NCBI GenBank assembly: GCA_963732675.1
Contig: CAVTAJ010000013.1
Span: 34,137 to 98,136, forward strand
Origin: Nitrospirota bacterium
Lineage (GTDB): Bacteria > Nitrospirota > UBA9217
Length of the DNA: 64,000 nt
Direction of reading: 5' to 3'
Shown: one piece after another, positions 46,828-47,271 of the stretch
Layout of the letters: each line of letters starts with the position of its first letter
Position numbering within the stretch: the stretch's first letter is position 1
Made by a program: the position numbers and the translations under genes
Notes under the pieces: generated by a model
Told to the model about the DNA's origin: nothing
The model's input: the letters and a program-made list of their open reading frames with translations, nothing else
Database searches by the model: none

Positions 46828-47271
46828 CTAATAATTCGTTATGAGCGATTCCACACTTACACTCCCGATTACCGGCTGAGCGATCGTCACGGTCACGTGT
46901 TTGTAGTCAGTCGCCACTGCGCAATTCGACTGATCATTCAGGTTTCCCGCAGGTACAAAACAGACCGTACGAGTGCAAAAGAACCCCGCCAATATCGTCG
47001 AATTACAGGGCGGGCTGCCTGTCACTAATGTCCCGGCATTAAATCCGTTCGTCGCCTTTTCACCGAAAACCTGGTCCATCTCCCCCTGCGCAAGCTGCGT
47101 TGCCTGACTGAGGATGAGCGGGTTTGCGCTTCCTTTCATTCCGCTGGTAAAGACCGAAAGCACGCCCACCGCCGCGATCGAGAGGACCACGAGGGTAATG
47201 ATGGTCTCGATCAGGGTGAAGCCGCCCTCTCCTGACTCCTGACTCCTGACTCCTGACTTTATCTTTTGCAT
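46828..47271 (-). CDS. Minor pilin (PilV-like) whose leader is encoded by a heptamer repeat
   Basis: MQKIKSGVRSQESGEG|GFTLIETIITLVVLSIAAVGVL. The ATG at 47271 lies 1 nt after the upstream stop (TGAgATG). Confidence 0.75.
   Translation of the reverse strand: MQKIKSGVRSQESGEGGFTLIETIITLVVLSIAAVGVLSVFTSGMKGSANPLILSQATQLAQGEMDQVFGEKATNGFNAGTLVTGSPPCNSTILAGFFCTRTVCFVPAGNLNDQSNCAVATDYKHVTVTIAQPVIGSVSVESLITNY
47230..47257 (-). repeat. Perfect heptanucleotide tandem repeat, 4 copies, inside the prepilin leader
   Basis: The plus strand reads TCCTGAC x4 (47230-47257); in the gene sense this is GTCAGGA x4. The 28 nt are not a multiple of 3. Confidence 0.9.

Follow-up and report, generated by a model that had tools for sequence, protein, structure and literature searches.

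A perfect heptamer tract in the leader of a Nitrospirota minor prepilin is probably a stably inherited member of a dispersed repeat family and not a working phase switch

Perfect non-triplet repeats in the 5' coding region of a gene constitute the classic architecture of contingency loci, as in the case of the tetranucleotide repeats of Haemophilus influenzae lic and lgtC and the poly-G tract of Neisseria pilC. A PilV-like minor prepilin gene located on the minus strand of the Nitrospirota DNA analysed here (a stretch of 64,000 nucleotides, hereafter the window) contains a repeat of this kind: four uninterrupted copies of the heptamer GTCAGGA (47257–47230), which start 13 nt after the initiating ATG at 47271. 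The locus thus raises the question whether this pilin is switched on and off by slipped-strand gain and loss of repeat units, as a preliminary description of the DNA had proposed in its headline, or whether the tract has a different origin.

The periodic run comprises 30 nt with a period of 7 (4.3 copies, 100% matches, score 60 in Tandem Repeats Finder; Table 1). Read on the minus strand, the sequence at the tract is ATGcaaaagataaa(GTCAGGA)x4 gagggcGGCTTCACCCTGATCGAG and, with a longer upstream context, ...ggcggtgaatTGAgATGcaaaagataaa(GTCAGGA)x4 gagggcGGCTTCACCCTGATCGAG. The 14-mer GTCAGGAGTCAGGA, corresponding to two units, occurs five times in the window when at most one mismatch is allowed, compared to 0.02 occurrences expected, and a count of five was reached in none of 100 shuffled sequences. 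The existence of the tract is therefore confirmed by the repeat search, by the sequence itself and by the chance test.

Table 1. Positions of the repeat tract, the minor-pilin genes and related elements within the window.
Feature	Position	Strand	Basis
Perfect heptamer tract	47229..47258	-	Tandem Repeats Finder, sequence, chance test
Class III leader peptide coding sequence, 17 residues, MQKIKSGVRSQESGEGG	47221..47271	-	ORF list, Pfam, TIGR02532, codon list
Shine-Dalgarno-like GGCGGTGA, 6 nt upstream of ATG 47271	47278..47285	-	sequence; putative function
Minor prepilin, PilV/GspI position, 147 aa, second of four minor-pilin genes	46828..47271	-	ORF, Pfam, NCBIfam, homologues
GspH/FimT-like minor prepilin, 185 aa; TGA stop 1 nt before the pilV-like ATG	47273..47830	-	Pfam N_methyl and GspH
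PilW-position prepilin, 202 aa as longest ORF	46207..46815	-	ORF list, Tandem Repeats Finder, Pfam
Last operon gene, 680 aa, PilX/GspK-position N-terminus and large extra domain	44105..46147	-	ORF list
Second site, two-arm hairpin: CAGGAGC-type words, loop, CTCCTGACTCCTGACT	58636..58694	+	fold, repeats
Two-unit copy, one mismatch, GTCAGGAGTCAGGT	36978..36991	-	14-mer search

The open reading frame passes through the heptamers, so that they are translated as part of the leader, as had been proposed. The tract codes for SGVRSQESGE, residues 6–15 of the 17-residue leader, and the N-terminus of the protein reads MQKIKSGVRSQESGEGG/FTLIE, where the slash marks the predicted cleavage between Gly (codon 47223–47221) and Phe (codon 47220–47218). 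The start codon is joined to the stop codon of the upstream gene as TGAgATG, and the putative Shine-Dalgarno sequence is located within the conserved ...QTGAVN C-terminal coding end of that GspH/FimT-like gene and is kept in orthologues. A codon scan found no ATG, GTG or TTG in frame between ATG 47271 and the Gly-Phe site, the sole near-cognate codon being ATA at codon 4; this bears out the earlier claim that ATG 47271 is the only in-frame start upstream of the cleavage site. A downstream start using the last AGGAG as a Shine-Dalgarno sequence was considered and rejected: it has no ATG, GTG or TTG at its disposal, and the first CTG lies beyond the cleavage site, where initiation would remove both Gly-1 and Phe+1.

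The consequences of unit gain and loss were followed in silico. The frame is kept with 1, 4 or 7 units and shifted with 0, 2, 3, 5, 6 or 8 units, the shifted alleles giving products of 10–79 residues. A change of a single unit in either direction was thus correctly predicted to shift the frame; it cuts the PilV-like product to 17 or 72 residues. The word itself contains a stop codon in none of its three frames in the sense orientation and in all three when read antisense. Only the sense arm of such an array can therefore be read through.

Several features identify the protein as a type IV prepilin or pseudopilin with a class III signal peptide. The 147-aa product matches Pfam PF07963 (N_methyl) over residues 15–38 with 24.5 bits (cut-off 21.2) and TIGR02532 with 23.3 bits (cut-off 16.3), and the cleavage/methylation motif G/F-x-x-x-E is present and followed by a hydrophobic helix (GG/FTLIETIITLVVLSIAAVGVLSVF). 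A prepilin peptidase gene (PF01478, Peptidase_A24; 63.9 bits, above cut-off) is encoded elsewhere in the genome (G000:C21:150210-150599), so the pilV leader is expected to be removed. The gene is PilV-like only by its size and its place as the second of four minor pilins: the match to the PilV equivalog family TIGR02523 covers only the N-terminal 53 residues and stays below the cut-off (22 bits against 52.2). Among the 239 homologues found at E<=1e-20, some are named prepilin or MshD by JGI. Long class III signal peptides of ∼15–30 residues are typical of type IVb and Tad pilins, and the PilV-like leader, with 17 residues and a terminal Gly preceding the hydrophobic N-terminal helix, resembles these. 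However, the mature N-terminus is of the type IVa or type II secretion kind (G/FTLIE, Glu at +5), and the leader owes its length to the repeat array and not to membership in a distinct pilin class; leaders of the homologues range from 6 to 45 residues.

The upstream GspH/FimT-like gene has NCBIfam matches to GspH and ComGD below the respective cut-offs, and the 680-aa product of the last operon gene has no match in Pfam or NCBIfam. A frameshift in the pilV-like gene would plausibly have polar effects on the genes downstream. Heptamer words are also found in the 5' region of the PilW-position gene (46720–46815), first of the GCGGATT type and then of the CCACACT/CGAACTC type (on the minus strand, GCGAATT GCGGATT ACGGAGT GAGGAAT, followed by CCGAACT CCACACT CCACACT TCGAACT). 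Since three in-frame ATG codons are located in this region, the true start and the leader length of the PilW-position protein are uncertain. A similar two-arm heptamer design is seen in the pilV-like leader of the related genome G004.

Upstream of the minor-pilin operon, also on the minus strand, there are two near-identical short pilin genes in tandem (49911–50258 and 50363–50701; 115 and 112 aa), whose products read MxRTQKGFTLIELVMVIVILGILAAVAIPKYIDMRTDALSASFDGMCGG..., and a third pilin gene at 50951..51301; the three are probably major-pilin paralogues. Between these genes and the operon, at 47861–49840 (minus), a gene for a TPR membrane protein, whose first 100 residues match DUF6056 weakly, appears to be split into four overlapping ORFs (49592..49840, 49186..49656, 48915..49319 and 47861..48988). 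A 96%-identical strain (L017) differs in this gene by three 1-nt indels, at 49693, 49217 and 49039, and the homologous locus L022 carries a single gene of 644 aa. The split gene is either a pseudogene or the result of indel errors in the draft assembly.

The source genome (G000; a draft of 2.96 Mb in 23 contigs, 54.8% G+C, 89% complete) turned out to be rich in arrays of this period. Tandem Repeats Finder reports 365 period-7 rows genome-wide, 297 of them with at least 2.5 copies, and perfect tracts of at least three copies number 18 at period 7, compared to two at period 5 and two at period 8. The period-7 arrays belong to many word families, are mostly intercistronic and often consist of two complementary arms 20–40 nt apart. 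Words represented among the ∼300 arrays include AGTCAGG, TCAGGGG, AATTGGA, ATGCGGA, CGGAGTT and AACTAAA, and arrays can be seen, for example, at C14:49721-49786, C19:25888-25982 and C21:69689-69758. GTCAGGA itself forms 18 tracts of 2–9.4 units, of which the 17 outside the pilV-like gene are mostly intergenic. The longest, with 9.4 units, lies between a gene whose product ends in ...RYFQKNEPEMLG and a gene for a small membrane protein. Seven GTCAGGA tracts have 2.9 units or more. All of them run in the sense direction of the genes on either side, and six are located between a stop codon and the next start; two GTCAGGA tracts are followed by genes which, from our own reading of the N-termini, we take to encode a cytidylate-kinase-like protein and an ABC-2 permease-like protein. 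Downstream of some of the tracts there is a complementary arm, with which they pair by way of G-U in the sense RNA. Over all period-7 arrays the ratio is 77 sense to 40 antisense, a crude genome-wide count which is confounded by paired arms.

The alternative that the preliminary description had itself mentioned, namely an origin of the tract from a repeat family spread over the genome, thus proved to be right, and the second occurrence of the word that it had pointed out is equally real. At 58680–58693 a perfect GTCAGGA run of 2.3 copies, read on the minus strand, constitutes the 3' arm of a hairpin element (−31.5 kcal/mol, z = −2.1) in the 5' region of a gene of the EPSP-synthase family (58716..59963, plus strand; Pfam EPSP_synthase, 389 bits). 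At least three GTCAGGA units are present in 13 of 41 related genomes from seven genera, and only one of the 41 contains the reversed control word. With many loci in excess over the control and a mainly intergenic placement oriented toward downstream start codons, the GTCAGGA family has the properties of a dispersed direct repeat. In wetland, sediment and soil metagenomes the depth of pure-repeat words is hundreds of times that of the flanking sequences (in run X3, 16,025 versus 25), which indicates that those communities are very rich in (GTCAGGA)n tracts of 4.4 or more units.

Heptamer direct repeats in intergenic regions are familiar from cyanobacteria, where they are referred to as STRR sequences. 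In the literature searched we found no report of heptamer repeats in connection with Nitrospirota. The closest parallel is provided by the TAACTGA arrays of marine Beggiatoaceae, cyanobacteria and Bacteroidetes, which are intergenic and oriented toward start codons (MacGregor 2015, PMC4679880). In both cases one 7-nt word is repeated 2–9 times in tandem at many, mostly intergenic loci and points toward the downstream start; the few copies found inside ORFs fall in peripheral parts of the protein, and the arrays are suspected of acting post-transcriptionally. GTCAGGA differs in being purine-rich, in containing AGGAG, in its occurrence in Nitrospirota and in being one of many word families in the genome, and many of the Nitrospirota arrays are paired with a complementary arm and form hairpins. 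In addition, forward TAACTGA carries stops in all frames whereas sense GTCAGGA carries none, which is why the latter could be translated in the pilV leader.

Whether the number of units varies was assessed on assembled contigs, a comparison to which low-frequency variants within populations are out of reach. Contigs 90–100% identical to the window span the tract ungapped and with four units in 10 of 12 metagenome runs, from wetland, freshwater sediment and soil; the other two (X11 and X20) have no spanning contig. None of the runs contains the exact strain (best share 0.57), and the one RNA run has 0.06 of the words in common. The Logan contigs, taken to be built from 31-mers, cannot span five or more units of so abundant a word and drop rare variants. 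Two JGI contigs from near-identical strains (L017 and L018) carry four units, in which one or two bases are substituted. A 5-kb comparison with a close strain (96.3% identity) shows 10 indels, none of them at the tract, and across ∼18 kb compared with L017 and L018 (94–97% identical) no 7-nt indel is found at any heptamer array; the heptamer arrays are therefore generally stable at 3–6% divergence, and the intergenic ones supplied no slippage event that could serve as a positive control. L018 (JGI Ga0210377_10001589) also contains, at the equivalent of ∼47141 in the pilV-like gene, an imperfect 26-nt tandem duplication that shifts the frame. The two copies differ at strain-polymorphic sites, so that the duplication probably arose when two variants were joined in the metagenome assembly and does not represent a real allele.

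More distant relatives show the same constancy. In three species of the same genus (G003, G005 and G006; ∼52% aa identity) four decayed units, for example TTCAGGA GTCGGGA GTCAGAA GTCAGAA, occupy an unchanged position and phase, and some substitutions are common to them, which indicates that these tracts evolved by point mutation without turnover of units. The frame is open through the tract in all orthologues of types A and B. Two diverged lineages share the perfect (GTCAGGA)x4 together with the TGAgATG junction: L023, at 63% aa identity, and P0111, where it is found in five independent contigs and where an adjacent gene that does not code for a pilin shows only 61% protein and ∼71% DNA identity. 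A comparison of relatives, which had been suggested as a check, thus yields four units in every spanning assembly with one exception: L020 has exactly one unit between unchanged flanks, is 21 nt shorter and remains in frame. Alleles of 2, 3, 5 or 6 units are absent from the ∼20 independent assemblies, and the listed homologue clusters contain no frameshifted (OFF) allele. Three candidates for such an allele were rejected: P0005 (which starts VVLSIA...) is truncated at a contig edge, and P0107 (MIEIV...) and P0004 (MAG/F) are miscalled starts with normal, longer leaders upstream.

Across the homologues the leader is a variable segment. The block SGVRSQ(K/E)SGE is present in 25 of 120 listed homologue clusters, placed two residues before the cleavage site in 24 of the 25, and leaders of clusters that lack it often read like translated heptamer arrays. 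In L021 (JGI Ga0495449_0054298, 551–612) the leader array is (GACGARR)x5 in DNA, giving MRIRDERRRTRDEGRGRMAG/F. The closest species (G004, loci L002/L016), 92% identical at the amino acid level in the mature part, has a different leader with a GTG start and the words TGCGGAT... and TCCGAAC x4, giving MRIADVRIITPNFELRIPNSKG/F. Positions 47220–47598 do not align by blastn with 2569–3004 of L016, while the flanks are 90–91% identical. This unaligned stretch, which corresponds to the C-terminal half of the FimT/GspH-like gene plus the pilV-like leader, gives the impression of a segment of the minor-pilin operon that has been replaced.

Identity profiles in 28-nt bins point the same way. Compared with L023 and L025 the tract is 100% identical and the flanks 50–80%, the pilV tract being the most conserved bin of the locus; in L027, on the other hand, the flanks are 93–100% identical to the window and yet the allele is decayed, its tract bin being 82% identical. 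Since these profiles are opposed, the leader is best regarded as a mosaic cassette whose history is unlike that of its flanks. The cassette is bounded on one side by the end of the upstream gene and on the other by the codons for GFTLIETIIT, both of them strongly conserved anchors. Identity of all 28 nt between lineages that are ∼72% identical around the tract has a chance of ∼1e-4 (0.72^28) and suggests either exchange of the cassette or a role at the RNA level. Judged from the identity profiles alone, recombinational exchange would be the simple explanation, with RNA-level constraint and slippage-driven homogenisation as alternatives; the profiles do not separate the three. Small intergenic hairpin repeats of the MITE or REP type, such as the Correia elements of Neisseria, offer a further parallel, as they are short, fill spacers and are present, absent or replaced between close strains; similarly, the pilV leader cassette differs between 97%-identical strains as well as in the 92%-identical G004. 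Unlike these elements, the pilV tract has a single arm with no inverted partner, is located within a reading frame and keeps its position throughout at least one genus.

Taken together, the genome-wide repeat family and the four units in ∼20 independent assemblies indicate that the tract does not look like an on/off switch. It is probably one member, translated and stably inherited, of a family of heptamer-word arrays found throughout the lineage. In the sequence of events that we envisage, a stop-free intercistronic array would have come to lie downstream of the coupled start codon but ahead of the Gly-Phe cleavage site and been absorbed into a dispensable leader, where it may be tolerated owing to the removal of the leader by prepilin peptidase. 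Selection for the reading frame (7n = 1 modulo 3) would then hold the tract at four units, and a slip by one unit would be a rare knock-out mutation and not a switch in use. A purely neutral passenger does not account for the purity of the repeat across ∼72%-identical lineages; its nucleotide-perfect state in distant lineages might be due to exchange of leader cassettes between the anchors or to an RNA-level constraint common to the arrays.

The latter possibility can be taken further, by supposing that the tract is a functional cis-acting RNA element whose operator, in pilV, lies inside the coding leader. Its binding partner might be the anti-Shine-Dalgarno tail of the ribosome, S1, a cold-shock-type or other protein, or complementary arrays in other transcripts. 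We consider this reading tentative and on balance unlikely, albeit several observations are in line with it: the uniform sense orientation of the longer tracts and their placement between stop and start codons, the 3' complementary arms that can pair through G-U only in sense RNA, the conservation of GTCAGGA across genera, and the conservation of the pilV bin in L023 and L025, which extends to synonymous positions. The analogous TAACTGA arrays of Beggiatoaceae have been proposed as binding sites of a translational regulator (PMC4679880). The pilV tract, however, lies downstream of its start codon and the other tracts upstream of theirs; no complementary (TYCTGRC)n arm for it exists anywhere in the operon; the local RNA fold is unremarkable, with about half of the tract unpaired; and the close strains L017, L018 and L027 tolerate 1–5 substitutions in it. 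Cassette exchange, moreover, explains the conservation as well. As a candidate binding factor CsrA was looked for; the 89%-complete genome lacks it, with control genomes scoring positive. An array of CsrA-binding sites, considered because the unit resembles the CAGGAUG repeat of CsrB, is accordingly unsupported. A shade more doubtful is the wider proposal that (GTCAGGA)n and (CAGGAGU)n arrays constitute a cis-acting RNA code conserved in this Nitrospirota family, serving as putative sense-strand operators that set the translation of individual cistrons; if true, it would explain why 28 nt are identical, synonymous positions included, where the surrounding identity is ∼72%.

That the tract is a slipped-strand contingency locus, in which units are gained and lost at elevated frequency so that the PilV-like pilin and, by polarity, probably also the downstream minor pilins are turned OFF and ON to give a mixed population of piliated and non-piliated cells, appears distinctly improbable. 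In architecture the resemblance is close: as in known contingency loci, a gene for a surface organelle carries a perfect non-triplet repeat close to its 5' end, gain or loss of a unit shifts the frame and truncates the product, and there is no internal restart. The repeat also stays perfect in three diverged backgrounds, its purity across ∼72%-identical lineages is what slippage-driven homogenisation would be expected to produce, and the in-frame allele of L020 implies that the unit number has changed at least once. Heptanucleotide tracts of three or more units were accepted as candidate repeats in a permissive screen (PMC2651432). The documented heptanucleotide switches of H. influenzae, however, such as those at hmw1A and hmw2A, contain 13–38 units (PMC2651432), against the four found here, and the pilV host is free-living in sediment, soil or wetland. 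The repeat number is not polymorphic within the species (10 runs at 90–100% identity, L017 and L018), and natural ON and OFF alleles do not coexist among the homologues examined. Differences between strains at the tract consist of point substitutions, which interrupt the repeat, or of replacement of the whole cassette, and the type-B orthologues have kept four units while decaying by common substitutions, as would not be expected under slippage turnover. Finally, the word occurs at 17 other sites and is one of ∼300 mostly intergenic arrays, so the repeat can be explained without selection for mutability. The tract therefore resembles a contingency locus but fails the test of strain polymorphism, and it fits the features tested of dispersed heptamer direct-repeat families; with an invariant unit number, no OFF alleles and a short tract, the phase switch put forward in the preliminary description is unsupported.

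An artefact of assembly or sequencing, in the tract or in its length, is scarcely credible: the genome is a metagenome-assembled draft and a neighbouring gene has three 1-nt indels relative to a close strain, but the four-unit tract is reproduced by short-read contigs from 10 metagenomes and by JGI and ENA assemblies, independent contigs spanning it unchanged.

A true switch at this locus would have been a rare instance of phase variation of the contingency type in an uncultured bacterium living free in sediment; the comparative data argue against it. What the locus clearly illustrates instead is the way in which proteins can take up dispersed heptamer arrays, by means of a stop-free word, a sense orientation and a segment that is cleaved off, with different lineages carrying different heptamer arrays at one and the same leader position. 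For annotation it serves as a warning, since gene callers mis-start these pilins (as in the MAG/F and MIEIV... calls), and screens for repeat-based phase variation will raise false alarms in array-rich genomes. The cause of the 28-nt perfection across distant lineages may reveal the function of this superfamily of arrays or the mechanism by which it spreads.
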